Part shown: positions 157-30,100 of the stretch, piece by piece | Layout: each line of letters starts with the position of its first letter | Numbering within the stretch: position 1 is the stretch's first letter | Source: Stegostoma tigrinum | Taxonomy: Eukaryota | Direction of reading: 5' to 3' | Assembly (NCBI RefSeq): GCF_030684315.1 | Contig: NC_081391.1 | Location: forward strand, 13,989,342 to 14,053,341 | DNA: 64,000 nucleotides | Program-made: the position numbers and the translations under genes | Notes under the pieces: model-generated | The model's database searches: none | Told to the model about the DNA's origin: nothing | What the model saw: the letters and a program-made list of their open reading frames with translations, nothing else

Positions 157-886
157 AAGCCAGAGAGGGCTGAGTGGGGTAACAGCCTGCAGGCGCTGCA
201 GGTTGCCCTGGATCTGGAGAAGAATGTGAACCAGAGTTTGCTGGATCTACACCAACTCGCCACAGCCCAGACTGACCCTCATGTGAGCTTTCCCACCTCC
301 TCGTTCTGATCACTGCTAGGCCCTCAGGGCAACACCTCATTGGTCTTTTGTAGATTAAAATTCACTGGGATACTTTGATCACAATATCATATCTGAACAG
401 TATGTTCATTTAATCAACATTAAAACAGCTCAGCAATGAGCTGAAATGGGAATTTGGATTCAGTACCACGAGTGATGTTGGCCACTGAATTCACTTTCAG
501 GGCCACTTGCAGTAGAATGATCATTGTCTGTCACAGTTCAGCTCGGCTCCACTTCACAAACAACAAGGTGCATCTGGAATGTTACTGTCCTCCCTGGCGC
601 AACATCTAGATGTCAGTGGCTTTTCCAGCTGTCGAGAGCCAGTTATGGTGGGGTCTGTTTCGCAGTGGGAATTCTGAAAATTTCCTGGATCATGCAAATG
701 TACCAAGTTGCCATAATTCCTCTGTTGCAGCTGTGTGACTTCCTGGAGACCCACTATTTGGATGAGGAGGTGGAGATCATCAAGCAACTTGGGGACTACA
801 TCACCAACCTGAAGCGCCTGGGAGCCCCTGAGAATGGGATGGGAGAGTACCTGTTTGACAGGCTCTCCCTGGAGGACAGCAGTTAG
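157..886 (+). pseudogene. Ferritin copy A, truncated fragment with exon 3 (157-282) and exon 4 (731-886) only
   Basis: Exon 3 [42 protein letters not shown] with cag/gt boundaries; exon 4 [14 protein letters not shown]...LSLEDSS* after cag; AATAAA 1014-1019. Only ~60 nt of intron 2 precede exon 3, directly after another copy's 3' UTR, so its own exons 1-2 are missing. Confidence 0.8.
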
Positions 887-2475
887 TGTGGCCTGGAGTA
901 CTGTCTGCTTGGTCTGAATGCATTCCCCACTTCACCCTGGGCAATCTGTCTCCTTCCAGGGAGAAGGGACTTGTAGCAAAGAATGTAATGGCTGTACCAG
1001 CTGAATGCAAATGAATAAAATGATGTGTTTATCTTGGTTCTTGTCCATCATTCAGACAGCTGGACGCTGCAGGTTCTCACCAATAGGCCGATGGGAAGAG
1101 ATATCAGGCTCTGCTTTCTGCCCAGGTGCAGGAAACAGTTCAGCTGGGACTGAGATGAGTTCAACCTGACTCGTATCCTCCCAATGGGCCCTGACATGAC
1201 CAGCATATTCTGTTTTACATTTGCTGCCTTTATCTCATGTGGACACAGCCTAAAGTTACTGGGAGCCGGTGAAGGTTCAAACCAAGGCCAGTACTGGTGG
1301 GCTGAGACCTACCCTGCCTTGTTACAGCCTACTGTAGTTGACAGCACTGAACAGTTCATTCCTCTTGTTGTGGGAGTTAAATATGCTGCTACCCTGAAGG
1401 GATCTTGGTGTAATTACCCTTAGCCTCGAGTCAATTCTCCTAGGAGCATTCTGAAGCTGGCCTAATGTGGCTTTTGTCAGTTTACTTTCTCTGACCTGTT
1501 CCAACACCTTCATTGCTTTTCTCACCCCTCCCACCACCCCACTCCTAGCAATAAACTTCCACCCTGCCAGTCTACAGCTGGGAAAATTCAGCCCCAACAT
1601 TGACAGCACCCATATTCCATGGAGTTAGCTCAGGAAATTATCTTGAACTGTTACATGCTCATGTATGAGCTCAATACCACTTCGAGCACCATCACTGTGT
1701 CTTTTGGAGTAACACAGCAACACTCGTGGTTCAATGCTGCCATTTGATTGGCTCTTGCTGCTAAAGCCAGCATTGAGTGCACTAAGCTGCTCCCTTGGTT
1801 CCTCTGTGCTTCACACACGCTGAGGGTTACTCCTGATGAAGGTAGATTTCACCCAATCACATTGAAGCATCAGTGCGACTTGGAGAGGAGACCGTGAGAT
1901 GCTGACTTTCCTGTACGACTGCTTCTTCTATCTTTTTGAGGTGTCAGAGAGATGATGGGTTGAGGAGGGGGTGATCAGAGCCAGCCTGGGGATTGTTCCA
2001 GGGAGTTGTGTAGCGAGTGCACACTGCAGCCTTCACTGAAGGTGTGGGTCGTTCAGGCACTGAATGTATTTGTTCCAGTACAAGAAGTGTTTTATTTCAA
2101 ATAATCTTGAGTCTTGGCTGTAGAATCTGTGAATCCGTGCAGTGCAGGAAGAGATTGTTCAGCCCATTTAGTCTGCACTGATCCTCTGTCCTCTGAACAG
2201 CATCTTGTTCAGACACACCCTGTCTTCTTGCCCCCATCTTTCTATCCCACAGCCATTGCAAAGTAAACTGCATGTCTCTGGACTGTGGGAGGAAAGGAAC
2301 CCACACAGACACGGGGACGATGTACAGCCTCGTCAGAGTCGCCCATGACTGGAATGACATGTGGGTCCCGGGCACTATGCAGCAGCAGTGCTCATCAGTA
2401 AGATACCATGCCCCCGAAAGTAACAAAAACAGGAGCAGGTGGTGAGGAAAGTAAAGCAAGCTTTTCCTTTTTCAG

Positions 2476-5400
2476 ATGAGTTCCCAGATCAGTCAGAACT
2501 GTCACCAGGATTGTGAAGCTACTGTCAAAAGGCAGATTAATGTGGAGCTCACTGCCTCCTATCTCTATCAGTCTTTGGTGAGTGGTGTCCCTGCAGGGTT
2601 AAAACTTGATCTATGTAGTTGAAGTAAATGTTTTCTCTTGAATTTAATTAACTGGGCACTCTCTCTTTGTAGATTGAGTTTTGTAGTCCTTTCCTAAATA
2701 TTAATTCAGGATAAGGGCAACGTTACTATACCAATGGGGTTTGATAATGATGTACTCTGAAGCTGGGTCCCAGTTGGGCTTCAGAGATATGTGGAGGATG
2801 AAGTGTCCCTGGAGATATTTGCCACTTTGGTGTTTGAATTGGCAGTAGATGTCATTCCCTCTAAGATTACCAAATGTTGGTAGGGTTACTTCAGAAAGGT
2901 ATTATATTGATCAGACTGTGGGACTAGAATCACCCACTGGCTAGTTACCCTCTTTCTGACAGGTTTAAGTATCTGATTTTATATTTGCTTGCTTTTGTGG
3001 TGATACTTAAATATCAATTCTGATATTGACAATGATAATTCCCTATTGCAGTCTGCTGTGGCTAATCTGAGCAAACCTACTTGAGGTTAGGCTGTGAGTG
3101 ACTGGTATCTGACTTTTTAAAGTAGATCTCAGCTGAGGCCTGCTTGGCATTTTGCACTCCCATCATGAGATGGGTGTGGCCTATCCCTGAACCTGTAGAA
3201 AGTTGATCTGCTTTAGTGTGTGGCGTGTTGAAGCTTCTGCAAACCATGTTTGCCTCCTGCCCCCTCACCCACACCCTGCATCCCCTCTAGCTGCTGGCGT
3301 CTGAGATTCATGGTCCAGTCTCTATGCCATCCTGATAGGGAACAAACTGTCCCCTTTAGCCAGGTGGCAGTGAACCTGTAACTTTCCAATGGGTAGAATG
3401 TTTCAGACAGTAGGAACAGCAGATGCTGGAGAATCTGAGATAACAAGGTGTAGAGCTGAATGAACACAGCAGGCCAAGCAGCATCAGAGGAGCAGGAAGG
3501 CTGATGTCTTGGGGCATGACCCTTCTGAAGGTGGGCCTAGGCCCAAAACAGCAGCCTTCCTGCTCCTCTGCTTGGCCTGATGTGTTCATCCAGCTCTACA
3601 TCATCGTATCTCAAGGGGTAGAATGTGTTTGGAAGTTGTGTTGAAGTAACCTTGGTGAGTGCTGCAGGGGACCTGGTAGATAATGGACCCTGAAAGGAGG
3701 TGGTGAATGCAGTCCCCATGAAGTGGGCTGCTCTGTCCTGGATGGTGTCTGCATCTTGAATGTTGTAGCTCCACCTCCACAGACACATGGAGAATCTTCT
3801 TCACTCTCAGCTTTTGTCTGTTAGAAAGAAGATGCCTCATGACAGATGGATGAAGCCCGTATAAACTCCATTTGGGAGGTGGGTACAGCTTTCATTGGTG
3901 AGCCAGTTGACGGGTTTTAATTACTGACCAGGGTCCCAATTCCCTTGGGGAACACGTGTGCCAATTATAAAATCCTTCCTATTCTCTCCTGCCACAGCTT
4001 GTTCCTACCCCGTTAAACAGACAAGAAATTTTGTTTGACTGCTTCTACATGAAGACAATAACTTCCCACCAGGCTTCCTCGACAACAAAACTCTTAGCTC
4101 CTGTTTCAAATATCAGAAGAATAGCCCTTCATAAACCTCAAGGCATTGGATTGTGAATATCTCGGTTCGGAAGTGAGTCACATATGGGTGGACAAACAAC
4201 AGAACGGTGCCAGCTGGGATAAGCCAAACTTTGTTGTCCAGCTTTGTGTTAACTAGTGACGTTAGATCAGCCATTATCTGTAGATACAGGTCACATTGGT
4301 TCTCTCTCTCCAATATTTGACCTTCCCTCAGTTTGATTCAATTTGTTTTGTTCATGTGACCCTTGTTCTCCCCCTTCTGGATGTGAGTGCACTAATTTTA
4401 GTGTGCTATAAACTATAACTGCAACAATCCAGAGGCAGTTACTGGGTAGGTTTTCCTTTGCACTATCTTGTTGTCGCTTTCTCTCATTCGCCTCTATTAT
4501 ATCTTGTAGTCATAAAATATACCGTACATTCAATCTCCCTGGTTTTGAGGCCACAGAAACCTTGCTTCGTCCTGGTTATATTGTTACAGCAGTGTCTAAC
4601 ATGTATTTCCATGCCAGCCCCAAAGGAGCAATAGTGTTACAGCTCCCCTACTCAAGTATAGCCTGCACTCCAGCTCCTGGTGCTTGTTTCAGCTGTTTGT
4701 TTGGCACTAATATTGTCCAATTCGAATGAAGGTTAGTGAGTGCAAACATGGCTGGATACAAGAAGAGCTATAATGCTGTGCCAGGCAGCCTGAGTAATTT
4801 ACTGTTTGTTTTAAGCCAAACTTTTGCCAGTTTCCAACAGGAAATTGGGATTGTTCTGTTTGATCCCAGTTGAAGGATCTGCTGGACAGCTGGACATCAT
4901 TGGGTTCTCAAACATGTTCACATACCAGGCAGTTAGTTTGCTGCAGAAGGCTGAACTAGAATTTGGAGTCAGTGCTGTGTTTAATGGGCTTTAACATGTT
5001 ATCTCCCTTCCAGATGTCCTACTTTGACCGGGATGATGTGGCCCTCCCCCACTTCTCCAGGTTCTTCAAAGATCAGTCCCGGGAGAAGCAGGAACATGCA
5101 GAGAAGCTGCTGAAATTCCAGAATCAGCGTGGAGGCCGAGTCCTCCTCCAGGATGTGAAGGTTGGAGTTGGGTGGGAGGGTTGCAGCTGTGGAGGAGAGA
5201 ATGGCAGCTCTTGTGGTGCTGCGTCCTGTTGGGATGTGAAAATCCTATTTTGGCATGGCTTCCCTGTTTGATTTCTTTTGAAGGCAGTTTCTAAACAAGC
5301 CCTATTGTCCACCATGTCTATGCTGCCCACAAACATCAAACTAGACTAACACAATTTCCTGCACTTAGTCCACAGCCGACTATCTTCTGGCATGAAGAAG

Positions 5401-7204
5401 TTGTTGAGATTAGGCTTCAATGTTGCTGGAGTAACTGCCTCCACTGACCCCTCAGGTAATGCATCCCATACCTCTCCCACCCTCGACTGGGTGGGTGGGT
5501 CCTCCAATCTCCTCAAACCTGTGCCATCTGGTCTTCATGTCTGCCATGGGGACTGTGTATTGTCCATCCTCCCTGATCTTCCACACTTCCATCAGATCAC
5601 CATCCCAGGCTATCCAACCTCCCTCTCATCATTGTATTTTTGTTGTCTTTTTTTGCTTCCATCTTGGGCCAACATCCTGATGACCCTCACCTGTACCCCC
5701 TGCAGTGCCACCTTGTCCCTCTGATGGTGGTTCTGGTCACCACACTACATTCCATCTTTGGTCTGGCCAATGCTGCCATGTTTGTGGCAAGACTCATCCT
5801 TTCTACTGAGCCCCAAATCATGGAGACCAGCATCATGTCAGCCCCTTCCCCACTCTGTCTACCTTTGCTGAACCTTGAGGGATGGACTTGGGCATTTGTT
5901 GCTTGTCCCTTTTACTGTAAGCACATTGCTCCCTTCAATGAATTAAATAGTAGTGATGTCTGATCATCCTGCTCAGACATGGATGAAGCCACCAGCACAG
6001 GTGAGACATAGATGCCTGGCCTGCAAGGTGCAGATTGGTACTCTACCTCAAGAGCCCTTGAGACTAAGGTGTCAATGTCCTGATCTAAACGCCAAATGGG
6101 CACTGGTGCAAACAGTTGAACTTTGTGTGAAATAAATCCCTAGCCCACAATGACTTCATGCTTCAGATCAAGGATAAATGGAGCAAAGTGAAGTCACTTC
6201 ACAAGTAATGAATGTGGGTTTTAGGGGTGGCACAGTTGCTCAGTGCCAGGGACACAGGTTTAGCTCTGGCCTCTGATGACTGGTGCTTACATGTTCAGGT
6301 TTCTTCCTACAGTCCAAATATGGGCAGGCTGGGTGAAGTAGCCATGGGGGAATTGCAGTGCGAATGGCTCAGGTAAATCTGAGATCTTCTTCAGAAGGTT
6401 GATTGCAGACTCAATGGGCTGAATGGCCTGCTCCCATGCTGCGGCGAGTCTCTGATTCTGAAGCTTAACTGTTCCTGTTTCCATCCTCAGAAGCCTGAGA
6501 GGGATGAGTGGGGTAACAGTCTGCAGGCAATGCAGGTTGCCCTGGATGTGGAGAAGAATGTGAACCAGAGTTTGCTGGATCTACACCAACTCGCCACAGC
6601 CCAGACTGACCCTCATGCAAGCTTCACCTCTTCATTCTCATCACTGCCATGCCTCCTCAACTTCATTGGTTGGTCTTTGTGGAGTGGAAATTCACAGACG
6701 TAACTTTGTCCAGATGCTACATTGTACCTTTGTCATCATAATTATGATGACAATGTTAAACTGCTCAACACCGAACTGAAATAGGAATTTGGATTACAGT
6801 CTAGTGGGAATGCTGATGTGATTTTTGGCTGCTGAATTGGGGATTGTTGCACTATACAATACAACTTGGAGCTCTTTAAGAAGGTGAGATGAAGCAGCTG
6901 AAATGTCCTCACTGGCACAAATTCTCCACCTGTTAGCTAGATTTTCAGGGATGTCTAGAACTAGCTATGGCTCAGTCTTTTTCAGTAGGAATTGTGAAGT
7001 TGTCTTGGATAGTATAAATGTACCAAGTGTCATATTCCTCTGTTGCAGCTGTGTGACTTCCTGGAGACTCACTATTTGGATGAGGAGGTGGAGATCATCA
7101 AGCAACTCGGGGACTACATCACCAACCTGAAGCGCCTGGGAGCCCCTGAGAATGGGATGGGAGAGTACCTGTTTGACAGGCTCTCCCTGGAGGACAGCAG
7201 TTAG
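2476..7204 (+). CDS. Ferritin copy B (exons 2476-2577, 5014-5160, 6491-6616, 7049-7204); open 176-aa frame but promoter deleted and intron 3 donor is GC; possibly a pseudogene
   Basis: Spliced translation [52 protein letters not shown]...[12 protein letters not shown]...[13 protein letters not shown]...LEDSS*. Donor after 6616 is gcaagc. AATAAA 7330-7335. No TATA/CCAAT/DR1 cassette upstream. Confidence 0.7.
3402..3611. mobile_element. Short inverted-repeat element, probably Penelope-like terminal-repeat derived, in intron 1 of B; remnant in F at about 36185-36318
   Basis: Inverted arms (gtagagctgaatgaacacagcaggccaagcag / ctgcttggcctgatgtgttcatccagctctac); flanking 15-bp direct repeat caatgggtagaatgt 3387-3401 and caaggggtagaatgt 3612-3626. 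Confidence 0.7.
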
Positions 7205-8885: not shown

Positions 8886-9133
8886 AAAAGTACCAAACAA
8901 AAGGGGGAGGCTGTTGCACAGTCATCAAGTCGTACATCATGGAAATAGACTCTTCTGCCCACACAGTCCCTACACACCAGGTTTCCAAAACTCTGTAGTG
9001 CCATTTGGCCCATCTTCCTCGAAGCCATTCCTTCCCCCATAAGTGTCCAAATGTCTTATCAAAGTGGTAATTATACGTCTATTTTATTCTCATTTTCAGG
9101 TTGATAAACTTATACAATTTGTTCTTGCACAGG

Positions 9134-9315
9134 AGGTCAAAGGTCATTCAGCAATTCCATCATCCACCAGTTGTCAATTCTGGTTTCTGGATCCAATTCC
9201 CATCCTGCACTGATTGGACGTGGCAACTGATCAATTGATTAACAAGAGTGATTGGCCATCACTGATGATGTCATTTCCTGCTCAAAAAATGAGGGTCTTC
9301 TCCTGGAGTATAAAT
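9134..9315 (+). promoter_or_regulatory. Proximal promoter of copy C: DR1, two inverted CCAAT boxes, TGATGTCA/TTTCCTG motif, TATA
   Basis: AGGTCAAAGGTCA 9134-9146; ATTGG at 9213 and 9251; TATAAAT 9309-9315; block shared by seven copies. Confidence 0.75.
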
Positions 9316-9411
9316 AGAGCCCAATGGCATTGCTATTTTAGGTGTAGCTGATTTTCTTTCTATATTTATAATTTGGTTTTGTTGGATAAGGAAAGTTGTT
9401 TCTATCACAAA

Positions 9412-12400
9412 ATGGCCTCCCAGATCAGTCAGAACTATCACCAGGATTGTGAAGCTGCTGTCAACAAGCAGATTAATGTGGAGCTCACTGCCTCCTATCT
9501 CTATCAGTCTTTGGTGAGTGCTGTCCCTGTGGGGTTGGAGTTACTTCTGTTATGAAGTGAACTGTTTTTTTTTAAAACAAACTAGATTAATACTCTTGTA
9601 TAATAAAATGTGAGGCTGGATGAACACAGCAGGCCAAGCAGCATCTCAGGAGCACACGTTTAGCTTTTGTGCTCCTGAGATGCTGCTTGGCCTGCTGTGT
9701 TCATCCAGCCTCACATTTTATTATCTTGGAATTCTCCAGCATCTGCAGTTCCCATTATCTTTAACACTCTTGTAGACTTGTTTGTTTTTTTTTGTATCTC
9801 TCTTAGCTATTTCTTGATTCAGCGTAAATGTGGTGACAATGGGATATGATACTGATATGCAGCAACTGAGGCCCCAGTTGTCTCAATGATATATGGAGGG
9901 TGAAGCATCTTGTGATTTATCTTACAATTCCTTTTAGGGCTGTGATTGCCTATAACTGGCTGTGGCTCTCCATAATTTTCTAAACTACTGTCAAGCTTTG
10001 ATCCAGATAACCATTGGCTAACTACCTTTTTAAATCTGCCTTGATGTATCTGCTTTAATTTTGTGCATGTAAATAAACAAACATACTGGTTTTGGTATTT
10101 ACAATAAGGTGTTGTAGTAATTTGACAAATCAGATTTTTTTAAGCTGAACTGAAGTCCTTGAGGTAAGACAAGCTGCTCCCTGCTTAAGTAGGTCTCCGA
10201 TATTATTTTGGCTTTCTGTGCTCTATATCATGAAGTGGGTTTGATCCATCACTTCACAACCTATAGAAAGTTGACTTGTTATAGGTGCCTGCCCCCCCCC
10301 GACCCCCCCGCCCCCAAAAGGGGGCTGCTGGAACATGCTGAGGCTATTGACCCAGAGGTGAAGAAATAAATGTTCTTCCTTTACCATTTAACCAGATAAA
10401 GAAACAAACTGGCTCCTCCCACCATGTGGTGGTGCCCCTGTGCCCTTCCAAGGAGTAGAATGTGTTCAGAAGGTGTTGAGGTCCCCTTGGTGAGTGCTGC
10501 AGGGGACCTGGTAGATAATGGACCCTGAAAGGAGGTGGTGAATGCAGTCCCCACGAAGTGGGCTGCTCTGTCCTGGATGGTGTCTGCTTCTTGCACGTTG
10601 CAGCTCCACTTTTCTCCAGACACATGGAGAATATTCATCACTCTCTGGGCTTGTGCCTATTGGAAGGAAGTCCTATCTAGGGACATGAGGATAAAGTCCC
10701 TATAACTACCTTTTTGGGAGGTGGGAATAGCTTTAACTAGTGAACCAATTGTTGGGTTTTAGTCACTGACCACTGTCCCAACTCAATAGGGAATCTTGTG
10801 TGCTGATAATAAAATCCCCACTATTCTTCACCTTCTACAACTTAACTACCCAATTAAACCACTTTTTTAACTTTTAGTTTGTATTTGAGGATTAAACTAA
10901 CTTCTCACCAGGATTCTACCAAAGAACAACTTCTTCTTTTGATGTCAATAGACTGTTCCTAATCAGCAGTAACTTGTTGGATTGTGAATCTCAGTTGAAA
11001 AGTGAGTGAAATGAGTGGGGAAAACAATAGTTTAGCCTCTTGGAATAAGCTAAATTGAGCTCTCCAGCTTTGAACAAGTCAACAATCTATAGGTCACACA
11101 GTCCTGCAGATACCATTAGGCCTCCTGAACATTTGATCTTGTTTCAGTTGTGAATTTTAATGCTTTGCTTTGCAAGCTTCTGGCAACCTGAGTGCATGGC
11201 ATAAACAAATGTGATAAACTATTGCTGCAACAAGCCAAAGGCTGTCACTGGGCAGGCTCTCCTTTAGCACCAAGATTCTCCTAATCGCCCTCATTCTCCT
11301 GCATACTGCAAACAGCATCTCTTGTAGAGCTGCTTTATGTAAAAAAAAATACAGTACATCTGATCCAATTGGTTGCAGAAGACCTGTACCTACCAGCTAT
11401 ATTAATGTCCAGCATCTGCATGTTACTCGAGCACCAGGGGAGACATGTAATGACTTGAAGTTGCCTGACCCTGTGCACATCCTGCATTCCAGCTCCTGGC
11501 ACTTGTTTAAACCCTATTCAGTTACCACTTCCATCCATTTCTGGAGGCTAGATGGTAGAAATGTGCTTTCAGCTTTTCTATCCAGGCTGTGCCAGACACC
11601 CCCCCCCCCCAAACAATTCAGCAGGGTTTACAAACCAAAACACTGAATTTGCATCTTACGTGGAAGAAGCTGGGGTTGTTTGGTTTCCTCCAATTAAAGG
11701 AGCTGCTGGCTAATTTTGCAACACCATTAGTGAACATTGTAAGGTGTCAACAATTTTCAGCTGATTGAATCATTAGTTTGCTTTAGACTAAACCAGTCCT
11801 CCAGTTCTGAGCATGAGAAATGGGGTCAATGATGTGTTTAATGGGCTTTAACATGTTATCTCCCTTCTAGATGTCGTACTTTGACCGGGATGATGTTGCC
11901 CTCACCCATGTCTCCCGGTTCTTCAAAGATCAGTCCCAGGAGAAGCAGGAACATGCAGAGAAGCTGCTGAAATTCCAGAATCGGCGTGGAGGCAGAGTCC
12001 TCCTCCAGGATGTGAAGGTTGGAGTTTGGGAGGGGGGCATGGTGTGGTGTGCAGGAATGGTAGCTCATGGTGTTTTCTGTTAGTAGTGACAAGATTTTCA
12101 TGTGGTAAAGGATGTGAAGGTTGGAGTTGGAGAAGGCAGGCAGTGGGGAGGAGATGTGAGAAATGGCTGCTTATGGTGTGGTTTCATGTCCTGAAAGAAA
12201 GTGAAAACTGTTTTGTTTGGCTCCCCTCCTTTTGACTAAAAGGAAAGAAATCCCAGAAACAAGCCTCTTGGCTCCCCTCCACCTGCTGCTCCCCCCCCCC
12301 CCCCCCATGCTGACCCGATAAACACCAAACCACATGAATCCCATTTACTGCACTTGGTCTACAGCCCCCATGGCATTGGTAGTTGTCTAGAAGCTGCTTA

Positions 12401-14248
12401 AATATTGCAGCAGGAGATGCCTCCACCACTGCCCCACCCCCCCCATATTATTTTTCCACTACCCTCTCGGCAAAGGATTCCTCTAACCTGCTTACTCCTC
12501 ACATCAGTGCCCTCTGGTCTTAATGTCTCTTTCTCCCCACCCCCTCATAGCAGACACTCCCCATCTACTATCAAGACTCCACACTAATCAAATGCCATCA
12601 CATAAACATCTCAACTGACTTCACTCTGAGGATTGGAGTGAGAAATCTGATCTCTCCTTTTAATGGATTTTTCAGTCTTGGGGCAACATCCTGGTGACCC
12701 TTCCAGTGCCATTGTGGCTCTGGTCACCACACAGTATTCCACCTTTGCATGGCCAATGCTGCAAAGTTTGTGACAAGACTGGAGTCCCTGTCCTGCGCCC
12801 CAAGAAATGGGGAAGGGCATTGTGGAAGCCAACTTCCCCATCCTGTCTACACTTATGGATCCTTGAAATATCTCTAGTCTTGTTCTCTTGGTTCCTTTTA
12901 TTGTCAACATATTGCTGTCCCTTCAATGAATTAAATAGTAGTGATGCTTTTGATCATTCAGGTCAGTCCTATATGAAGCCATAAGCACAAGTGGGACTTC
13001 AACCTGGGCCTATGCTCCAAACCTAGGGACAGTACCACTGCATTACGAGCCCTGGGATTAAGTTGTGAATATCCTCCTTGGGATGCCATCAGATGGGCAC
13101 TGACAATTCTGTGCAAACATAACTCTTATCCCCACTATGACCTGGTTGTGAATTGACTTTCCTTTCGGAAGAAGCAAATAGGGCTAGGTGAAAGCAATTC
13201 CTTAAATCACTGATCTGTTCTTCCTGAGGACTTCAGGGATGGCGGTGGTTAGCACAACTGCATCAGTGCTTGGGGCACAAGCTTAATTCTGGAGTTGACA
13301 TGTTCACCGCATCTCTACATAGGCTTCCTCCCACAGTCCAAAGATGTGCAGGGTAGGATAGGCCATGAAAAATGCAGGATTACATGGCTGGGGCTAGGAC
13401 CAGGTTGGATGCTCTTCAGATGGTCATGAGTGGGCAGAATGGCCTGATGCATGCTGCAGGGATGTTGTTTCTGAGGCTTACCTGTCCTTCTTTCCATCCT
13501 CAGAAGCCAGAGAGGGATGAGTGGGGTAACAGTCTGCAGGCGCTGCAGGTTGCCCTGGATCTGGAGAAGAATGTGAACCAGAGTTTGCTGGATCTACACC
13601 AACTCTCCACAGCCCAGACTGACCCTCATGTAAGCTTCACCACCTCCTCATTCTCATCACTGCTAGACCCTCAGGGCAACACTTCATTGGTTGGTCTGTG
13701 TGGATTGGAAATTCACAGGTGTGCACTGATCACTTTGGGTCCATGCTGCTGAGCAGTTGTTACATGGTGATCAGTAATGAAGTGAAATGGGAGTTTGGAA
13801 GGCAATCCATTGGGAGTGATGAAGTGATATTGGCCATTGAATTCCCATTCTCACTTGGGAGCATTACAGTGGAATGATCATTGTCCATCACCATCCAACT
13901 CAGCTACACTTCACAAACAGCAAGATGGAGCAGCTGACATCCTATTGTCTTCACTGGCACAGATTTTCCAGGTGTTAGCTAAATTTTCAGGGCTGTCTGG
14001 AACTAGTATGGTAAAGCCTGTTTTTCAGTGGGAATTCTGAAATTGTCTTGGATAGTGTTAATGCACCCAGTTGTCATATTCCTCTGTTGCAGCTGTGTGA
14101 CTTCCTGGAGACTCACTATTTGGATGAGGAGGTGGAGATCATCAAGCAACTTGGGGACAACATCACCAACCTGAAGTGCCTGGGAGCCCCTGAGAATGGG
14201 ATGGGAGAGTACCTGTTTGACAGGCTCTCCCTGGAGGACAGCAGTTAG
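9412..14248 (+). CDS. Ferritin copy C, 176 aa (exons 9412-9513, 11871-12017, 13504-13629, 14093-14248)
   Basis: Four phase-0 exons of 102/147/126/156 nt, GT-AG introns at the positions typical of vertebrate ferritin genes, no stops; TATA 9309-9315; AATAAA 14376-14381. Confidence 0.92.
9601..9760. mobile_element. Hairpin-forming inverted-repeat insertion (Penelope-like pLTR derived) in intron 1 of C
   Basis: Perfect ~56-bp inverted arms; 14-bp target-site duplication ttaatactcttgta 9587-9600 and ttaacactcttgta 9761-9774. Confidence 0.8.
10425..10670 (-). mobile_element. Ancient LINE 3' relic in intron 1, shared by all copies (about 3612-3830, 27950-28200, 36320-36540, 53465-53710, 63150-63400; partly deleted in D and G)
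   Basis: Minus-strand translation [14 protein letters not shown] resembles the C-terminus of a common shark non-LTR retroelement RT (recalled, not database-checked). Confidence 0.55.
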
Positions 14249-16504
14249 TGTGGCCTGGAGTACTGTCTGCTTGGTCTGAATGCATTCCCCACTTCACCCT
14301 GGACAACCTGTCTCCTTCCAAGGAGAAGGGACTTGGAGCAAAGAATGTAATGGCTGTACCAGCTAAATGGAAATGAATAAAATCATGTATTGATCTTGCT
14401 TATTGTCCATCATTCAGAGCTCTGAATACTTTGGGTGATAGCTCTTGCTTGAAGCCAATTCGTTTTCTGTCATTTGATTGGTCCAATTTCTAATTGGATT
14501 AGGCAACCCTTCACAGAATAGCTCACTATCCCCACATTAGAATGTAACTCGATGGAGTGTTTTTTTTTGGTTAGTCCTGTGGAAATTGAAGGTGTTTCTC
14601 CTCCAAATAGGATAAGGTTGGGATTTGTCAATTGTGGCATTCTCCCTCTTCTAGAGGACAATTAGTGCGCTTCTGGATATGGTGGGTTCAACTGTAGCTC
14701 AAAGAAATTGTCTTCCTCTGGTGACAGGAAGTTCCCACACCTTCTAAATAGACTTCTCTACCCAGCCTGATAGAATTTGGGATAGTGGTGTTCAATTGCA
14801 CATTTCCCTTAATCTCTTCCCCGCCTCAGCCATCCTGCGTACTCAATTATTGCCTGAATGATGACAGCAACACAAAGTGAAGACAGCCCTTTATCTACTG
14901 ACCCAGCTGCCTGATCACAAAGGTCTAAAGGAAGAGGCCCAGCAGGCTCTGATTTCAATCCAGCTGGCGGAAGCAGCAGAGGTGTGAAACAATCTCGACT
15001 GCCTGGTATATCTCTTTTTTTTTTTTCCCCCATTGGGCCCTACCCTGACCAATAAACACTATATTCTCAGTATTGTTACTTTTGGTTTCACCATCCCAAA
15101 CTGTGGCTGGCGCTCTTTCTCTTCCGCTTCTCCTCACTTCTCTCACCCCGCCCTCCCCCCACCCAACCTTTTCTATCCACGTGCCCCCACCAGCCTAAAC
15201 ATTCACCACAGCCCCTTTCCCTGGGAGTCAGCTCCAGACGTTCACCTGAACTGTACTGGATTATAATGCAGGGCCTCATTGCTGCTTACAGCAGGATAAC
15301 AGGGACCTGGGAAGAACACAGCAATGCACCTGGTTAAATGCTGCTGTTTGATTGGCTCTTGTTGCTAATGCCAGCATTGAGCACACTAAGCTGCTCCTTT
15401 GGTTCCTCTGAGCTTTCCCCCATGGTGAACATTACTCCTGATGCAGGTTGATTGGGTGAAATCACATTGAAGGAGCAAAGTGGCTCGGAGGAGACATGGA
15501 GATGCTGACTTTCCTTTACGGCTGCTTCTTTTATCTTTCAAGGTGTCAGAGATCATGGGTTCGTGAGGGGGCTATCAGAGACATCCTGAGGATTGTTCCA
15601 GGGAGTTTTGTAGCGAGTGCACACTGCAGCCTTCATCGAGGTTGGCTGGGGTGGGGGGGGGTGCTGCAGAGTCAAAAGGCACTCAACATATTTGTTCCAC
15701 CACATAAAGCAATTTATTTTTGGTGACAATAAGTCTTGGCTACAGTAACCCTCAAGTGCAGGAAGGGACCATTAGGCCCATTAAATCTGCATCGACCTTC
15801 TGAACAGCATCCTCCTTAGACCCAACCCCTTTGCCTTAACTCCACATTTCCCACGGCTAATCGACCTAGCCTGCAGGCCCCTGCTCACGATCGACAATCT
15901 GCAAATCGTTGGGCTGTGTGAGGAAACTCAAGCACCTGGAAGAAATCCACGCAGTCCATCACCCAGGGGGAGAATCGAACCTGGGTCCCTGGCACTGAGG
16001 CGCCAAAACATTCTAAAGTACCAAAGGAAAGGAATACACTGCGGCAAACTACGCCATGGGAATAGACTCTGCAGCGCAGCCCGAACTTGCAGACCAGGTT
16101 TTCATAAACTGTGTAGTGCCATTTGCCTACGTTTGGCCCATCTTTCTCTAAACCGTTCCTTTCCATGTAAATCTCCAAATGTCACTTAAATGTTGTAATT
16201 CTATCCACCTCGACCACTTCCTCTGGCAGCTCGTTCCATACACGCACCACCCTCTGTGTGACAATGTTGTCACTCACGCCCCTTTTAAATCTTGCCGCTC
16301 TCCCCTCAAACCGGTGCCCTCTAGTTTTGGACTCCCCTACCCTGTCCCAGCATGCTTTTTATATACAGTCAATCTTGAGTGTGCCAATGGCAAGGCTACA
16401 TTTAGTGCTCAGCAACTGTTACACTTCAGGAGGTGGTGATGAGCTGCTTATTACAGTCCACCTGGTGTCGGAGAGACCGGAATGATGCTGCTGCTGCTGC
16501 TGTT

Positions 16505-17307: not shown

Positions 17308-17495
17308 AGGTCAAAGGTCATTTCAGCAATTTCATCATCAACCAGTTGTCAATTCTGATTGGTTTTTTGACCCGATTCCCATCCTGCACTGATTGGATGT
17401 GGCAGCTGATCAATTGATTAACAAGAGTGTTTGGCCATCACTGATGATCTCATTTCCTGCTTCATAAAATGAGTGTTGGCTCCTGGAGTATAAAT
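17308..17495 (+). promoter_or_regulatory. Proximal promoter of copy D
   Basis: Perfect DR1 17308-17320, ctgattgg, cagctg, TATAAAT 17489-17495. Confidence 0.75.
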
Positions 17496-17582
17496 AGAGT
17501 CCCAGGGCAGGGATGTTTACTGTTGCTTTTAGCTGTGTCATTTTTCTGGGGAGGAAAATAAAGCAAGTGTTTCCTTTATAAG

Positions 17583-20500
17583 ATGGCCTCCCAGATCAGT
17601 CAGAACTATCACCAGGATTGTGAAGCTGCTGTCAACAAGCAGATTAATGTGGAGCTCACTGCCTCCTATCTCTATCAGTCTTTGGTGAGTGGTGTCTCTG
17701 TTGGGTGAAACATACTTCTGTTCTGTTGAAGTGAACTCTTCCCCTTGGATGTAATTAAGTTGTCTATCTTATAGACTGAGTTTTGTGGCTCCTCCCTCTT
17801 TCTCAATGCAGGATGAGTGTGATGTTACTGTAACAATAGTTTGGTGTCTAATGTTACTCTAACTTGGGTCCCAGTTGGTTGTCAGTGAGATGTGGAGGGT
17901 GGAGTGTTCTTGTAGTTACTTGCCTGTCCCATGATGGTGCTGTGACTGGTGGTAATTATAGCTTCCTGTGGCTGTTTGAAACTTGAGGGAACAAAATTAA
18001 AAATGAATTGGGACTCACCATTGTGGGAATGGAAGCACCATCAGCTAGTCACTGCTTTTCTTGTATCCTTGTTTCTATTTGAATCTTGTGGGGATCTGAA
18101 GTAAACCTGCCAATTGTGACTGAGAATCTTGGTTTCCTATTGCAATCAGCTTAGAATAGGCTTGTTCTAGCCCTACAGTGATGGGCCGAGAGGTGGCAAA
18201 TGGAGTTTAATGCAGACAAGTGTGAGCTGATGCACTTTGGTAGGAGTAACCGGAAGGCAAAGTACAGGGCTAATGGTAAGATTCTTGGTAGTGTAGATGA
18301 GCAGAGAGATCTGTGTCGATAGGTAGACACGGATTGTTCAAAGTTGCCACCCAGGTTGACAGGGCAATTAAGGCAGTGTTTTGTCTTTTATTAAGAGGAT
18401 TGAGTTCTGGAACCAAGAGGTTATGGTGAAGCTATCCAAAAACTCTGGTGCATACAGTTCTGGTCACTGCATTATAAGGATGTGAAGCTTTGGAAAGGGT
18501 GTAGAGGAGATCTGCTAGGATGTTTCCTGGTATGGAAGGAACATCTTATGAGGAAAGGCTGAGGGACTTGAGGCTCTCTTCATTAGAGAGAAGAAGGTTG
18601 AGAGGTGACTTAATTGAAACATATAAAATAATCAGAGGGCTAGTTCGGGTGGATAGGGAGAGCCTTTTACCTAGATGGTGATGGTGAGCATGAGGTGGGG
18701 TAGCTTTAAATTGAGGGCTGATAAATATAGGACAGATGTCAGAGGTAGTTTCTTTACTCAGTAAGGGAATGCAATGCTTTGCCTGTGACAGTAGTAGATT
18801 TGCCCACTTTAGGTACACTTACGTCATCATTGGATAAGCAAATGGGCGTACATGGAATAGTGTAGGTTAGATGGGCTTGAGATCAGTATGACAAGTCGGC
18901 ACAACATCAAGGGCTGAAGGGCCTGCACTTGGCTGTTATGTTCTATGCTCAGATTAAACTGGGTGAGGTTGTGACTCTTATCTGATTAAGCAGATCTCCA
19001 TTTGAAATCTACCTTGCTTTTCTTCATACTCATGAGGTGGGTGTGGGCTGTCTGTATGTCAAGTGTTGGAGCTTTTCAAAGGCACAGCACTGCCATGGGG
19101 CTGAGAATGTACTGACCCAGTGACTCTGGTTAAAAAGTTTATGCCCATTGTATTTGGCCTGATTGTAAACTAACTGGACCCTCTTTCCCCAGGTGGGGTG
19201 CTTGTGCCCTTCCAAGGGGTAGAAGGTGTTTACGTAACCTTGGTGTTTGTTGCAGGGTGCTCTCTGGGCTTGTCCCTGTCACCAGGAAGTCCCCCTCCTG
19301 ATGAGGATCAAGCCCCTGTCAGCCCCAGTTTGGGAGGGGGAACAGCTTTCATTGAGCCAGCAGTTGGGTTTTAATCACTGACCCATTGTCCCAACACACC
19401 TTGTAAGCATGTGCCAGGAATGAAATCCTTACTATTCTACATCTTCTAACTGCACATTTAAATCGCAAAGATAAATTGTGCTTGTGTTTGCATTTGAGAA
19501 TTGAAGCAACTTTTTTCAGCAGGATTTGTAAGAATGTGCTTGTTACTGGCTGCTTCCAATAGCAGACCTGCTAAACCTCAATACATTGAATTGTGAACAT
19601 CCTGGTTTAGAAATCTACAGGACTTTGCCTGTTGGATTAAGTCAACAGTGGTTTTTCCAGGTTAATGAGGGATCTTGTCTGGAGAGTAGTTGATCTGCAG
19701 ATCACTGTCATATTTGTCATGTGATCAGTTTGTTTTGTCAGTCTTTGTTTCATGTGTAATGGTACAAGTTGCTAGCAGTCTGAGTCAGTGCAGCTGTTTC
19801 AGATGCAACAATAAACTGTTGCAGTAACAACCCAAAGGCTGTCCTTAGGCAGGCTTTCCTTGGCAGATTCTTGGAGCTAACATCCTTCATTCATCTCCTC
19901 ATGCCCCCCCCAGCCACCCCAATACTGCAGTTCTTGTCAAACTAATAGATACAGTGCATCCAATTGCATTGATCCTGACTCAGCAGAAAATGTGCTTCTT
20001 CCAAGCTGTTAATTGCAGTGTCTAGGATCTGTTTTCTGGTCTTTGCCAAAGCAGCAATACAGTGCCCTGCAGCTGTTCTATTGGTGTACATCCTGCACTC
20101 CAGCCCCTGGCATTTCTTGAAACCCTATTCAATCAAAGATTTATCCCATTTCTGGTGGAGGTTAATCAGTAAAAACATCAATTCACACTTGTTCTCACCA
20201 AATGCTGTGCCAGACCCTCCTGGGCAATTTGCCTGGAGTTTCAAACCAAAATAAAACACATGGTATTTACAGCTTACTGGAGGAAGCTGGGATTGTTTTG
20301 ATTTTTCCAATTCAACAGCAACTGTTCAAAACTGGGTTCTGAATTGTTAATGCATCAGGTACTTAACAGCTTATTGTCAGTTTGATTTTGAGAATGCTCA
20401 AGTAGCCCTGTAGTTCTGAACTGAAATTGGCCCATGACTTGTTAATGGACTTTACCTTGTTCTCCCTTCCAGATGTCCTACTTTGACCGGGACGATGTTG

Positions 20501-22730
20501 CCCTTCCCCATTTTTCCCAGTTCTTCAAACATCAGTCTCAGGAGAAGCGGGAACATGCAGAGAAGCTGCTGAAATTCCAGAATCAGCGTGGAGGCGGAGT
20601 CTTCCTCCAGGATGTGAAGGTTGGAGTTGGGTGGGGTGGGGAATGGGATGGTAATGGCTGCTCTTGTGGTGTGGTTTCAAGTCAGTGACAAGGTTTTCAT
20701 TTGAGTCAAAACTTTGTTCAGCCTGTTTGATCTCCTTTTTGAAGCCAGTGTGGAAAGAAGCCCTTTGGCCCACCATGTCTATGCTGACCCCACAAACACG
20801 AACAACATTAATCCCACTTACCTGCCCTTGGTCCACAGGCCACTGTCCTGGCACTAAGTATTTGTCCAGCTGGACCCTAAACTGATCTGGAGTAGCTGTC
20901 TCCACCACCATCCAACCCTTTATGTGGTTCATCTCATATTTCAAACAGCCCCTCAGAGGGGTGGGGGTGGGGTGAAGTTTCCTCCAATCCCCTCTAACCT
21001 GCTTACTCCTCAAACCTGGTTTCTCTCCTGTCTTGGTGTCTGCCATGGGAAGACATTCCATCAACTGGCCACTCTCTATTCTTCAATTACATCAGGTCAC
21101 TCCCTCAGCCGTTCCTGCTCCACAGAAAATCCCAGCCTATCTAACCTCCAATCAATGGATCTTGGGCAACAGCCTGGGGAACCTCACCAGCTTCCCCCTG
21201 CAGTGCCATCCTGTCCAGGTGACTGGTGAGGCCAAAGAGGAATAATGTGGTGACCAGAAAAACAAACTGAGGAGACTGGTCCCCTTCCTGTTCCACCACA
21301 CCCAACTAATAGAGGTTGCTTGCCCTCTGTCACTGTTACACCCTGTTGACCTTGTCTGAACTTTGAGGGATCTATGGTTGTGGGCCTTTCTTAACTGTTA
21401 GCAGCACAACACACTTTGCAAACACCTCGCTGTCCCTTGGATGAATTAAATAGCCGTGATGTTTCTGATCATCCTGCTCAGGCATGTATGAAGCCACCAG
21501 CACAAGTGGTACTTGAACCTTGGCCTTGTCAGCCAGAGACAGGGGCACTACCACTGTACCATGACAGCATTTAGGATTCACTTGTGAATATCCTCGCAAT
21601 TCCATCAGATGGACCCTGATGCAAATCTTGTCATTATCCCCCACAATGACCTGTTATTCACCTTCCTCCTTCAGATCAAGGACCGACAGGCAAGGTGAAA
21701 GCAATTCTGAAGGAACTGTGCTCCAGGGCTGCCTCAGGGGCTAGCAGTGTTCTCAGTGCCAGGGACACAGGTTTTGATCTGGCCTCTGGTGAGGGACTGG
21801 TGTTTACATGTCCTCCCCGTGTCTGCGTTGGTGTCCTCATAGTAAAAGAGGATTGGCCATCTGAAATGCAGGGTTACAGGAATAGGGTGGGAGAAGGACG
21901 AGTTGGGATCCTCTTCAGAGCAGTTACAGACTGATCCACGTTGTAGAGATTCTGAAGCTTAACAGTCCTTCTTTCCCTCCTCCAGAAGCCAGAGAGGGAT
22001 GAGTGGGGTAACAGCCTGCAGGCAATGCAGGTTGCCCTGGATCTGGAGAAGAATGTGAACCAGAGTTTGCTGGATCTACACCAAGTTGCCACTGCCCAGG
22101 CTGACCCTCATGTAAGCTTCACCTCCTCATTGACTTCACTGCTAGGCCCTCAGGGCAACACCTTCATTGGTTGGTCTTTTGTGGATTAGAAATTCAGTTA
22201 GACTTTGTTTTTGTGCAGATGACATGGATCACTTCAGATCCATAGTGATTACAAAATCATTGCTGAGCAGTTGACTCCAAGTATGTATTTTAACTTGTAA
22301 ACCTGTGGGGAGGACTGAGGGGATATTGGTCACCGAATTCTCATTCAGGGCCACTGCAGTGGAATGACTTTTATCCATCACAAGTCAACTCTGCTCCAGT
22401 AAATAAACAGCAAGATGAAGCAGCTAAAAAGCAGTTGTCCTCTTTGCACAATTTCTCCAGGCGTTGGCTCTAGTCATCCCTGACAATCTCCCTCCATATG
22501 CATGTTTTTCAGTGGGGATTCTGAAGTTTCTTGGATAGTGTTAATGTACCAAGTGTCATATTCCTCTGTTGCAGCTGTGTGACTTCCTGGAGACCCACTA
22601 TTTGGATGAGGAGGTGAGGATCATCAAGCAACTTGGGGACTACATCACCAACCTGAAGCGCCTGGGAGCCCCTGAGAATGGGATGGGAGAGTACCTGTTT
22701 GACAGGCTCTCCCTGGAGGACAGCAGTTAG
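17583..22730 (+). CDS. Ferritin copy D, 176 aa (exons 17583-17684, 20473-20619, 21986-22111, 22575-22730)
   Basis: Intact spliced frame, GT-AG introns; TATA 17489-17495; AATAAA 22857-22862. Confidence 0.92.
18174..18947 (+). mobile_element. 5'-truncated, decayed CR1-type LINE in intron 1 of copy D
   Basis: RT C-terminal motifs ([11 protein letters not shown]) and the same 3' end and gttctat tail as the elements at 25.3 and 50.8 kb; ends approximate. Confidence 0.85.
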
Positions 22731-26909: not shown

Positions 26910-27096
26910 AGGTCAAAGCTCATTCAGCAATTCCATCATCGACCAGTTGTCAACTGTGTTTCGTTTCTGGATCCAGTTCCCATCCTGCACTGATTGGACG
27001 TGGCAGCTGATCAACTGATCATCAAGAGTGATTGGCCATCACTGATGATGTCATTTCCTGCTCCATAAAAAGAGGGTCTGCCCCTGGGGTATAAAT
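26910..27096 (+). promoter_or_regulatory. Proximal promoter of copy E
   Basis: DR1 variant AGGTCAAAGCTCA 26910-26922, two gattgg boxes, cagctg, TATAAAT 27090-27096. Confidence 0.72.
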
Positions 27097-27182
27097 AGAG
27101 TCCCACGGGAATGATGTTGATTGTTCTTCCTAATTTTGTTATTTTGGTGGTGAGGAAAATAAAAGAAATTTATTGTCACAAG

Positions 27183-30100
27183 ATGGCCTCCCAGATCAGT
27201 CAGAAATATCACCAGGATTGTGAAGCTGCTGTCAACAAGCAGATTAATGTGGAGCTCACTGCCTCCTATCTCTATCAGTCTTTGGTGAGTGCTGTCTCTC
27301 GGGGTTAAACATATAAATCTGTTCTGTTGAAGTAAATTCTTTGCCTGGCCTCTAGTGAAGCTGACAATCTAGTAGATTGAGGTTTTGTGGCTCCTACCTA
27401 AATATCAGTTCAGGATAGAGGTGGTGTTACTATCACGATGGTGTAGGATACTGATGTATGTTAACTCAGGTCCCAGTTGGCCTTCAGTGGTATCTGGAGG
27501 GTAAAAGCCTCTTGCTTTTGTTTTCTTTCTGACACAAGTTTCCTGACTTCATTTGCCTGATCTCTGTGGTGGTCCTAAACAAACATGCTGATTTTTTTTA
27601 ACACTGACAATAACAATAACTTCCCTGTTGCAGTGGCCCTTGTTAGTCTGAACAAACCTGAGGCTAGTCTGTGACTGGTATCTATTTTATGTAGATCTCC
27701 TTCATTGAGGCTGACTTGGCTTTACTTGTATTTATTCAAGAGGTGGGTGTGGCCTATCCCGTCCCTACTGAGAGTTGATCTGCCGTGTGTGAGAAATGTT
27801 GGATCCCCTCTCTGCCCCCTCTCCTCCCCACCCCACCCCACACTGGGGCTGCGGGAATGTGGTGAGGCTATTAGCCCAGTGACATTGAAGAAATGGAGGT
27901 TGTTCCCATATCATTTAGCTTGACCTAAAACAAAATGTCCCCTCTATCCTGGTGGTGATGTGACTGTGCCCTTCCAAGGAGTAGAATGTGCTTGGAAGGT
28001 ATGTGTTGAAGTAACCTTGGTGAGTGCTGCAGGGGACCTGGTAGGTAATGGACCCTGAAAGGAGGTGGTGAATGCAGTCCCCATGAAGTGGGCTGCCCTG
28101 TCCTGGATGGTGTCTGCTTCTTGCATGTTGTAGCTCCCCTTCTACAGACACATGGGGAATATTTATCTCCCTCTGGGCTTGTGCCTATTGGAAGGAAGTT
28201 GTCTTGTAATGAGGACTAAGTCCCTATAAGCCTCACTTGGGAGGTGGGACCGCTTTATTGGTGAGCCAGTTGTTGGGGTTTAATCACTGTGTCCCACCTC
28301 AACTGGCACATGCTTCCCAAGGATAAAATCCCGACTATCTTCTGCCACAACTTGTAACTACCCACTGAAACCACAGATATTTGCTTGCCTGAGTGTGGTT
28401 TTTGGATTTGAGGATTAAAGTAACTTTACAGGAGTCCTTCCCCAGAATGTAATTCTTAGCTGATGCTTCCAATAGCGAGCATTAGCTCTTAAACCCTTAC
28501 ATCGAATTGTGAACGTGACAGTTTAGATATGAGTCACATGGGCTGAAAACCTACAGGATTTTTTGCCTGTTTGGGTAAAGTCAGGGCAAGTGTTTTTCCA
28601 GGTTACTGTTTTCACTAGTGACGTTATCTACAGGCCACTAATAGTTGACATTTGATCATTTGTTTTGCAATTTGTTTCAGTCATGTGACTTGGTGCAAGC
28701 TTTTGACAGCCTGAGTTTGCACTATTTAGGCAGAGCAATAACCCACTGCTGCAACGATCCAAAGGCTGTTACTGGGCAGGCTTTCCTCGGCATTATCTTA
28801 GTGCCAAACTCCAAACTGGAGACAGCACACCTTTGTAGAGTTCATGTGTACACTTACATCCCAATCTCGTTGATCCTGGGTTTGCAGAAAACATGCTCCC
28901 TACTAGTCGTTGACTACAGCAGGGTTTCAACATCTTTTTTTCCAGTTTTCCCCAAAGGCAAAACATAGTACCTTGCGTCTTGTAGTTGAGAACTGGAATG
29001 GGGAGTGAGCCAGTGTTGTCTGATGTAATTTTAACTTGATCTTCCAGATGTCCTACTTTGACCGGGACGATGTTGCCCTCGCCCATTTCTCCCGGTTCTT
29101 CAAAGATCAGTCCCAGGAGAAGCGGGAACATGTAGAAAAGCTGCTGAAATTCCAGAATCAGCGTGGAGGCCGAGTCCTCCTCCAGGATGTGAAGGTTGGG
29201 GTTGGGTTTTGGGGGAGTGCAGGGGGGAATGGCTGCTCTTGCGGTGTCATCTCCAGTGACAAGATTTTCAGATCCTGAGCGAGTGTGAGAAGTTCTTTTG
29301 CTTGGCTTCCCTGTTTGCTCTCCTCCATCTCCAGTGTTTCAGCATTTATGCAAGCCCTCTGGTCCACCAGGCCTATGCTGACCCAGCAAAGACCGAACTG
29401 TACTCACCCTGTTCTTGGTCCAGGCCCTACTATACCCTAGTGTTAGCACTCGCCCAGCTAGTCCTTTAAACAGTGCTGCAGTAGCCGTTTCCAGCACTTT
29501 GTTCTTCCGTTCCCCAACACACCCACCAAATTTCCTCCAATCCCCTCTATCCTGCTTCCTCAAACCTGTGCCCTCTGGTCTGAGTGTCTGCCATGGGGAA
29601 GACATTTTCCCCATCTACTGTCCAGACTTCCTTGTCTTCCATCAAACAACCACCTCAGCCTCACCTGCTCAAAGGAAACCCCCCAGCCCATCCAATCTCT
29701 CTCCTCAATGGATTTTCTGTCTTGGGGAAATAACCTGGGGACCCTCACCAGCACCCCCTGCAGTACCATCCTGTCCTTCTGACTAGTGAGGCCAACGATA
29801 GAATGCAGCAGAGGCCAGAAGAACAATTTTCATAAAATGTGTTCAAAGGACTTGTCCCTGTGCTGTTCCTCACAACCCTGCCCCAAACTAACACATGTTA
29901 CTTGGCCTATGTCCCCTTTCACACACAGTTTGCCTTGTGTGAGCATTGAGGGATCGATGATCCTGTGTTTATTGTAAGCACATTACTGCCCCCCACAATG
30001 AATTCCAGTAATGATGGTTCTGACCATGCTGCTCGGGCATGTATGAGGCCACAAGCACAAGTGAGACTTGAACCTCAGCCTTGTCAACCGAAGCTTGGGA

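Follow-up and report, generated by a model that had tools for sequence, protein, structure and literature searches.

A tandem array of intron-containing ferritin genes in the shark Stegostoma tigrinum carries no recognisable iron-responsive element and probably encodes a ferroxidase-impaired subunit

The 5' iron-responsive element (IRE), bound by the iron regulatory proteins (IRPs), is regarded as a hallmark of vertebrate ferritin genes that contain introns, and a ferritin array in the shark Stegostoma tigrinum raises the question of whether such genes can leave this circuit. We analysed 64,000 nucleotides of contig NC_081391.1, referred to here as the window. Self-comparison revealed a tandem repeat of ~8.5 kb, with one ferritin gene of four exons per unit, always on the + strand (copies A to I, Table 1). 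A higher-order period of ~26 kb lies over the 8.5 kb unit: the D and G units are ~87% alike across 9 kb, and the same pairing is seen for E with H and for F with I. Six of the seven complete copies encode intact 176-aa proteins, the exception being copy F with two in-frame stops, and the spliced protein of copy G matches P0011 ('ferritin, middle subunit-like', Stegostoma tigrinum) over all 176 residues. Both full-length homology and the four exons place the copies in the vertebrate ferritin class (Pfam PF00210; H/M/L superfamily), and the top PDB matches of their proteins are middle-subunit chains, with E about 1e-84.

Copies C to I carry a promoter in which the TATA box lies 93–105 nt before the ATG (7 of 7 promoter-bearing copies), close to the ~95–105 nt given by an earlier sequence-only reading; in copy C the TATA box, TATAAATA, begins at 9309 and the ATG occupies 9412–9414, both where that reading had placed them. 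With transcription assumed to start at TATA+30, the predicted 5' untranslated regions (UTRs), or leaders, are 63–75 nt long and 36–47% U, in agreement with its estimate of ~65–75 nt of U-rich UTR. About 240 nt above the TATA box are conserved, with a between-type identity of 0.85 over TATA-220 to +7 and a ratio of observed to expected CpG of 0.10–0.32. Putative inverted CCAAT boxes occur near -97 in 7 of 7 copies and near -59 in 5 of 7, the proximal box being altered in D and I. A candidate direct repeat of the nuclear-receptor type (DR1) stands at a fixed offset of -175 to -181 from the TATA box in all seven copies, perfect in four and with one mismatch in three, and no further match with at most one mismatch was found on either strand of the window, so that the element is confined to the seven promoters. 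Beside it are a half-site resembling a Maf recognition element (half-MARE), E-boxes and Y-box-like inverted CCAAT boxes; the half-MARE and a site resembling a cAMP response element (CRE) are conserved, the latter and an ETS-like site also standing at fixed offsets. This anatomy favours the predicted transcription start ~30 nt below the TATA box.

IREs are described as 5' UTR hairpins with a CAGUGH loop, a five-pair upper stem and a C or UGC/C bulge (PMC3048577). Both CAGUG and CAGAG were absent between TATA and ATG in 7 of 7 copies, which bears out the earlier statement that these leaders contain no CAGUG loop hairpin. Taken alone this is weak evidence, because 93–96% of shuffled leaders also lack the motif. 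A pattern scan covering both strands of all 64 kb found not one canonical C-N5-CAGWGN-N5' hairpin whose upper stem was perfect, and the + strand of the window also gave none when one mismatch was allowed and a lower stem of at least 3 required. A relaxed hairpin scan, which allowed alternative loops, was empty for ATG-400 to +30 in 8 of 8 copies and for the 3' UTR in 7 of 7. Rfam, named as a check by the sequence-only reading, gave no match to the IRE family either at gathering score in the window (0 matches in all) or at E ≤ 10 over 7200–18000 (15 matches, the IRE family absent among them). A custom IRE covariance model, built from six control IREs and run with filters off, reached at most 10.1 bits (E 2.7) over 8810–64000 and 8.2 bits over 1–8750, and scored 29.7, 23.6 and 21.8 bits on control loci outside its training set. 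One of its matches, a CAGUGC near copy B (2369–2404, 7.9 bits), was rejected since it has no upper stem.

The controls were 37 ferritin loci from metagenome contigs (metatranscriptome ferritin mRNAs). On these, Rfam IRE_I scored 46–53 bits in 4 of 20, exactly the four vertebrate-type mRNAs; the pattern scan was positive in 9 of 25 and the relaxed scan in 9 of 11 chosen control loci. A tree grouped control L001 with the H ferritins of fish and L004 with their M ferritins. In the vertebrate-type controls (n = 4) the IRE ends 145–236 nt before the ATG, farther than the entire TATA-to-ATG span of the array. The predicted leaders fold like their shuffles (z -1.2 to +1.3, 7 of 7), two control windows giving -3.6 and -0.5. 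A search for shark ferritin mRNAs returned, from metagenome contigs, the same 37 loci, of which none could be recognised as shark (the best was 78% to the query); genome contigs yielded one unrelated locus.

The IRE is absent from the array at the DNA level. Its absence from the array mRNA is very probable, and if transcription begins ~30 nt below the TATA box there is good support for a loss of IRE/IRP control. Judged by the defining 5' UTR hairpin, the array copies would fall outside the IRE/IRP-regulated class (Rfam RF00037). The sequence-only reading concluded that translation is 'uncoupled from iron status'. This applies to the IRP route, but is too broad as a general claim, since iron could act via transcription or protein turnover.

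Relative to the H-chain reference, all six intact copies have E27, Y34, E61, K62, H65, E107 and E141, and so depart from the ferroxidase-active H/M set (E27, Y34, E61, E62, H65, E107, Q141). Lysine at position 62 is the L-chain state. The array shares the disabled ferroxidase site of L chains, and E141 is common to the solved L chains 2fg4 and 5lg8; the three-fold channel residues D131/E134 are kept. The E62K change is reported to suffice to abolish ferroxidase activity (PMC7760355). The Arg of FTH1 described as needed for NCOA4 binding (R23; PMC4592949) is Lys in the array copies, but carries little weight because Lys is likewise found in a sister array with E62 and in two invertebrate controls.

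The lysine is a property of a shark clade. In three related protein clusters (sized 45, 76 and 43, with 15 members listed each and two rows above 260 aa dropped), K62 was found in 14 of 14, 15 of 15 and 14 of 14 listed members. All 12 single-copy shark ferritins have E62, including that of Stegostoma, whose contig equals in length that of the array's models (26,869,179 bases); E62 is also found in 14 of the 15 listed members of a second amplified clade, the E62 sister array. Among nine informative rows of a sister cluster in Heptranchias, position 62 is K in four and N in two. In a tree built without a mammalian L chain and without FTHL17, nine K62 rows from Heptranchias, Heterodontus, Scyliorhinus, Mustelus, Cetorhinus, Carcharodon, Chiloscyllium and Stegostoma form a clade with support 100/99, whose proteins are 78–87% identical across distant sharks; E141 is confined to its carpet-shark rows. 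The clade joins the E62 array with weaker support (94/82), and the tree does not settle its position relative to H and M. The comparison with canonical H/L/M genes made in the sequence-only reading overlooks this derived K62 (and E141) clade, which has as its neighbour a single-copy ferritin whose site is intact and which presumably belongs to a cluster reported as ovary-specific. In such a derived, ferroxidase-altered and reportedly ovary-specific setting, IRE loss fits a known pattern. Two proteins on short contigs labelled Aeromonas veronii and Salmonella enterica (P0037 and P0153) fall within the single-copy shark ferritin clade or cluster, and are probably mislabelled shark sequence.

Comparison between copy types showed how unevenly the array has diverged. 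Identity was 0.60 in the leader, 0.85 in the promoter, 0.99 in exon 1, 0.90–0.99 in the exons and 0.90 in the 3' UTR; introns mostly gave 0.62–0.71, the end of intron 3 gave 0.83 and shuffled leaders gave 0.46. The leaders are indeed among the most diverged parts, as had been claimed, but they lie near the intron level, as expected of background drift, and accelerated leader evolution is unsupported. Synonymous divergence in the exons was 0.084, far under that of the introns, which suggests that homogenisation is limited to exons. Among the intact copies the ratio of nonsynonymous to synonymous differences (pN/pS) was 0.35, and by this measure the intact frames are under purifying selection. 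As a pattern in its own right, exon-limited concerted evolution is visible in exons and 3' UTRs that are alike between copy types, alongside introns and 5' leaders that differ by 30–40%.

Taken together, these data suggest that a shark-specific ferritin subunit left the iron-feedback circuit. Starting ~30 nt below the TATA box, transcription would yield an unstructured leader of 63–75 nt with no site for IRP1/2, and output would then be set by copy number and a tissue-specific promoter. With E62K the subunit would be unable to oxidise iron alone, and may take an L-like or structural part in shells built together with subunits of the neighbouring E62/Q141 array or of the housekeeping ferritin. 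The tissue may be the ovary. In the Greenland shark, 155 'FTL' and 179 'FTH1' copies are reported in ancient tandem clusters common with the great white shark, the largest of them ovary-specific (bioRxiv 10.1101/2024.09.09.611499); proteins of the great white shark are among those of the K62 clade, and the Greenland cluster is presumably orthologous to the window. The main text of that preprint (10.1101/2024.09.09.611499) contains 0 occurrences of IRE, ferroxidase, UTR or oocyte. Ferritin shells could in this way be stockpiled on a developmental schedule, even where IRPs would repress an IRE-bearing message. The array most likely makes a bulk, tissue-specific (probably ovarian) ferritin and not an iron-sensing one, and we consider the whole chain, from transcriptional drive and IRP independence to an impaired ferroxidase site and probable ovarian use, to be probable, if by no means assured.

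Several points weigh against this interpretation. AG precedes the ATG in six of eight copies, and the leader drifts like an intron. The ovary result comes from another shark's cluster, in which K62 and E62 copies were not separated and whose orthology is presumed. Copy F is a pseudogene and yet has kept its promoter, so promoter conservation is no proof of function. The promoter labels (DR1, CCAAT, CRE-like, ETS-like, half-MARE) are matches to consensus sequences. The L-type nucleation glutamates of the inner surface, at positions 57 and 60, were not gained (His/Asp and Gln/Arg, respectively), which leaves an L-like role uncertain.

The alternative that survives best accepts the missing IRE but places the product outside the oocyte, as a liver, gut or kidney ferritin driven by stress or by lipid receptors, or as a structural protein unrelated to iron. 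The DR1 element, intact or with a single mismatch in every promoter, presumably resembles HNF4/RXR/COUP-type sites and would suit this reading, as would the conserved half-MARE and CRE-like sites. The tandem ferritin expansion of the hadal snailfish, described as broadly expressed and linked to tolerance of reactive oxygen species, would suit it too (PMC10746142). However, the sole expression statement found for a shark cluster, in the Greenland shark preprint, is ovary-specific, and E62K should weaken a ferroxidase-dependent antioxidant role; we regard a non-oocyte role as unlikely. The copies could instead be surplus or decaying duplicates, in which the absence of an IRE is drift without biological meaning. 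One of the seven complete copies is a pseudogene, copy B has no promoter, a number of the family's NCBI models are truncated or possibly fused, and exons can be kept alike by gene conversion even where selection does not act on every copy. Set against this, six of seven frames are intact with the low pN/pS given above, the promoters (0.85) are more alike than intron ends (0.62–0.71), and the proteins have remained similar across distant sharks with K62 fixed, in a cluster reported to be expressed, which makes general decay decidedly unlikely.

A further alternative concerns the leader itself. If the U-rich stretch were the end of an intron, a non-coding exon bearing an IRE could be spliced from upstream onto, or just before, the ATG. 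The ATG of B, D, E, F, G and H follows immediately on an AG; the stretch is U-rich, its divergence (0.60) is intron-like and homogenisation starts at the ATG. However, the ATG is preceded by AAA in C and I and by AAG in D–H, whereas the true acceptors in the window are CAG or TAG in 21 of 21, and CAG precedes the ATG only in B, the copy without a promoter. The pyrimidine fraction is 0.47–0.71 in D–H versus 0.59–1.0 in real acceptors, an A at -3 fits the context of a start codon, as in four control mRNAs, and the NCBI models P0126 and P0127 of related copies appear, by eye, contiguous across the stretch. Since no IRE was found in the window, a leader exon belonging to each copy could not supply one, and only a shared exon outside the window could; we regard a spliced IRE as very unlikely. 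Iron-responsive translation by way of a non-canonical IRP site, or of some other protein that binds U-rich RNA, is the most improbable of all, for although the lack of a consensus does not exclude binding and the leaders are U-rich, neither their sequence (identity 0.60) nor their structure (folding z -1.2 to +1.3) is conserved, and the relaxed scan with its alternative loops was empty in 8 of 8.

If the array does encode an IRP-independent subunit, DNA just above the TATA box may hold a trace of how the IRE was lost. The best local matches to an IRE were located there and not in the leader: ungapped matches to the union of two fish IREs, falling in the 5' arm, span 13 nt in D, F, G and H and 10 nt in C, E and I, on the sense strand and 130–142 nt before the ATG. 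For each of the four 13-nt matches 0 of 400 shuffles reached 13, and the only window tiles to reach 13 were these 4 of 426, one tile reaching 12 and three reaching 11. Compared by eye, 12 nt of the match are identical to a ferritin-H IRE probe as published (PMC11699616). We tentatively propose, as a possible but doubtful origin, that a TATA box newly formed just below the ancestral IRE, which became untranscribed while its 5' arm was kept as an ETS-site DNA element; if true, what was once a switch in RNA would now be a binding site for a transcription factor. Against such a promoter shift, the gapped alignment is unremarkable (25–326 of 426 tiles score equally well), the first local-alignment test was matched by 4–8% of shuffles and the test was refined after the match had been seen. 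The copies count as a single event, and the ETS consensus by itself explains 7–8 bases. The covariance model reports nothing at the match, and no older TATA is visible ~60 nt farther upstream. A half-site search found no + strand match with at most two mismatches to either 13-nt core of control L001.

Table 1. Positions of the ferritin copies and their predicted elements in the window
Feature	Position	Strand	Details
Copy A	157..886	+	Exons 3 and 4 only; window edge cuts the rest
Copy B	2439..7204	+	Intact frame from ATG 2476; ~40 nt of UTR left; no promoter block; repeated element upstream
Copy C promoter block	9077..9316	+	Conserved in C–I; CpG-poor
Copy C putative DR1 nuclear-receptor-type element	9134..9146	+	Homologues at 17308, 26910, 35514, 43614, 52431, 62052
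Copy C two putative inverted CCAAT boxes	9213..9255	+	TATA-96 and TATA-58
Copy C CRE/ATF-like site joined to ETS-like site	9266..9282	+	ETS-like part matches IRE 5' arm, 10 nt
Copy C TATA box	9309..9316	+	103 nt ahead of ATG
Copy C predicted 5' UTR	9339..9411	+	73 nt, 47% U, without IRE
Copy C coding exon 1	9412..9513	+	ATG 9412
Copy C exon 2	11871..12017	+	Lys codon 11943-11945 replaces ferroxidase Glu62 (H-chain numbering)
Copy C exon 3	13504..13629	+	
Copy C exon 4 and 3' UTR	14093..14381	+	Glu codon 14129-14131 replaces Gln141; stop ends 14248; AATAAA at 14376
Copy D match to ferritin IRE 5' arm	17452..17464	+	13 nt, TATA-37; ungapped; gapped alignment not supportive
Copy D	17489..22730	+	TATA 17489; predicted UTR 17519-17582; ATG 17583; TATA to ATG 94 nt; four exons, intact
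Copy E	27090..31346	+	TATA 27090; predicted UTR 27120-27182; ATG 27183; TATA to ATG 93 nt; intact
Copy F match to IRE 5' arm	35657..35669	+	Same 13 nt
Copy F	35694..39944	+	TATA 35694; predicted UTR 35724-35798; ATG 35799; TATA to ATG 105 nt; pseudogene, stops in exons 2 and 3
Copy G match to IRE 5' arm	43758..43770	+	Same 13 nt
Copy G	43795..49062	+	TATA 43795; predicted UTR 43825-43888; ATG 43889; TATA to ATG 94 nt; intact
Copy H match to IRE 5' arm	52574..52586	+	Same 13 nt
Copy H	52611..56912	+	TATA 52611; predicted UTR 52641-52703; ATG 52704; TATA to ATG 93 nt; intact
Copy I	62232..62436	+	TATA 62232; predicted UTR 62262-62334; exon 1 from ATG 62335; TATA to ATG 103 nt; remainder beyond window

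Other features of the array were noted in passing. The lesions of copy F are a 6-nt insertion with a stop in exon 2 (37732–37884) and a stop in exon 3 (39228–39353), the promoter being retained. Polyadenylation signals in the 3' UTRs are AATAAA in 5 of 7 and ATTAAA in 2 of 7, and motifs resembling a cytoplasmic polyadenylation element were found in 0 of 7. Copy B is the sole copy with CAG and a pyrimidine-rich stretch ahead of the ATG (region 2120–2478), and could receive a splice from upstream; the repeated element upstream of it is presumably SINE-like (short interspersed element). An ATG at TATA+21/+24 is in frame with the ferritin in E, H and F (27111–27182, 52632–52703 and 35718–35798, respectively). 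If transcription began earlier it would add a partly hydrophobic N-terminus of 23–27 aa, an extension of the kind present in NCBI model P0127. As a conserved signal peptide it was rejected, being in frame in E, F and H, out of frame in D, G and I and absent from C, and hence no general feature. Several NCBI models of the array's ferritin family exceed one subunit in length and are possibly fused, and some are truncated. Intron 1 of copy C contains a near-perfect inverted repeat of ~100 nt (9601–9723), probably a small palindromic repeat element; Rfam matches of the microRNA type on this repeat, on both strands and below gathering score, were rejected.

What the array adds to the picture of vertebrate ferritins is an old, amplified, intron-containing shark clade that appears to be without an IRE and to carry a ferroxidase-disabling change as well. 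Shark ferritin copy number should not be taken to mean added iron-responsive storage or antioxidant capacity before the IRE and ferroxidase state of the copies is known. Whether IRE loss or E62K came first could be approached via the E62 sister array and the single-copy gene. No description of IRE loss or of E62K in shark ferritins was found in the literature, in a search covering few subscription journals; within the same search each feature is precedented, and no account came up of their combination in an amplified shark clade with introns. The array is not a new kind of system, as IRP-independent and ferroxidase-dead ferritins have each been described already.

Canonical FTH1, FTL and the M ferritins of fish and amphibians share four coding exons, 176 aa and the D131/E134 channel with the array, which differs from them in its missing IRE, K62/E141, the Lys at the NCOA4 Arg and its multiple copies. 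All five H/M isoforms of salmon are reported to bear an IRE (PMC4117605). Tandem amplification of ferritin in fish is a likeness shared with the hadal snailfish, whose expansion of the teleost gene fthl27 is described as comprising 14 copies expressed in most tissues (PMC10746142). FTMT is described as outside IRE/IRP control, as an intronless retrogene without TATA or CCAAT, and as having a targeting peptide and an intact ferroxidase site (PMC7760355). The array resembles FTMT in its probable freedom from IRE/IRP control and differs in having three introns, TATA and CCAAT. FTHL17 is not known to have introns, an IRE, TATA or CCAAT. The array, with its introns, TATA and CCAAT, is not of the FTMT/FTHL17 retro type, which is intronless and has neither TATA nor CCAAT. 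It resembles FTHL17 in E62K and in its multi-gene locus, FTHL17 being, in contrast, mammalian, X-linked and H-derived. FTHL17 is reported to be ferroxidase-dead through E62K (PMC7760355) and expressed in the germ line, with six genes at one mouse locus (PMC5312872). The shark K62 clade probably had an origin independent of FTHL17.

Among invertebrates, nearly all atypical ferritins are reported to lack an IRE, a loss accompanied by a degenerate iron-binding site (PMC8395497; sponge HdF2/EmF2). The sponge atypical forms are 38–46% identical to human H, and the array proteins about 66–70% identical to vertebrate H. In the comparison with the ferritins of Schistosoma and Lymnaea, the Schistosoma mRNAs are also said to be without IREs, and a yolk ferritin reportedly exists. 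Snail yolk ferritin is not known to have an IRE. The array would be a vertebrate parallel to these yolk and germ-line ferritins.

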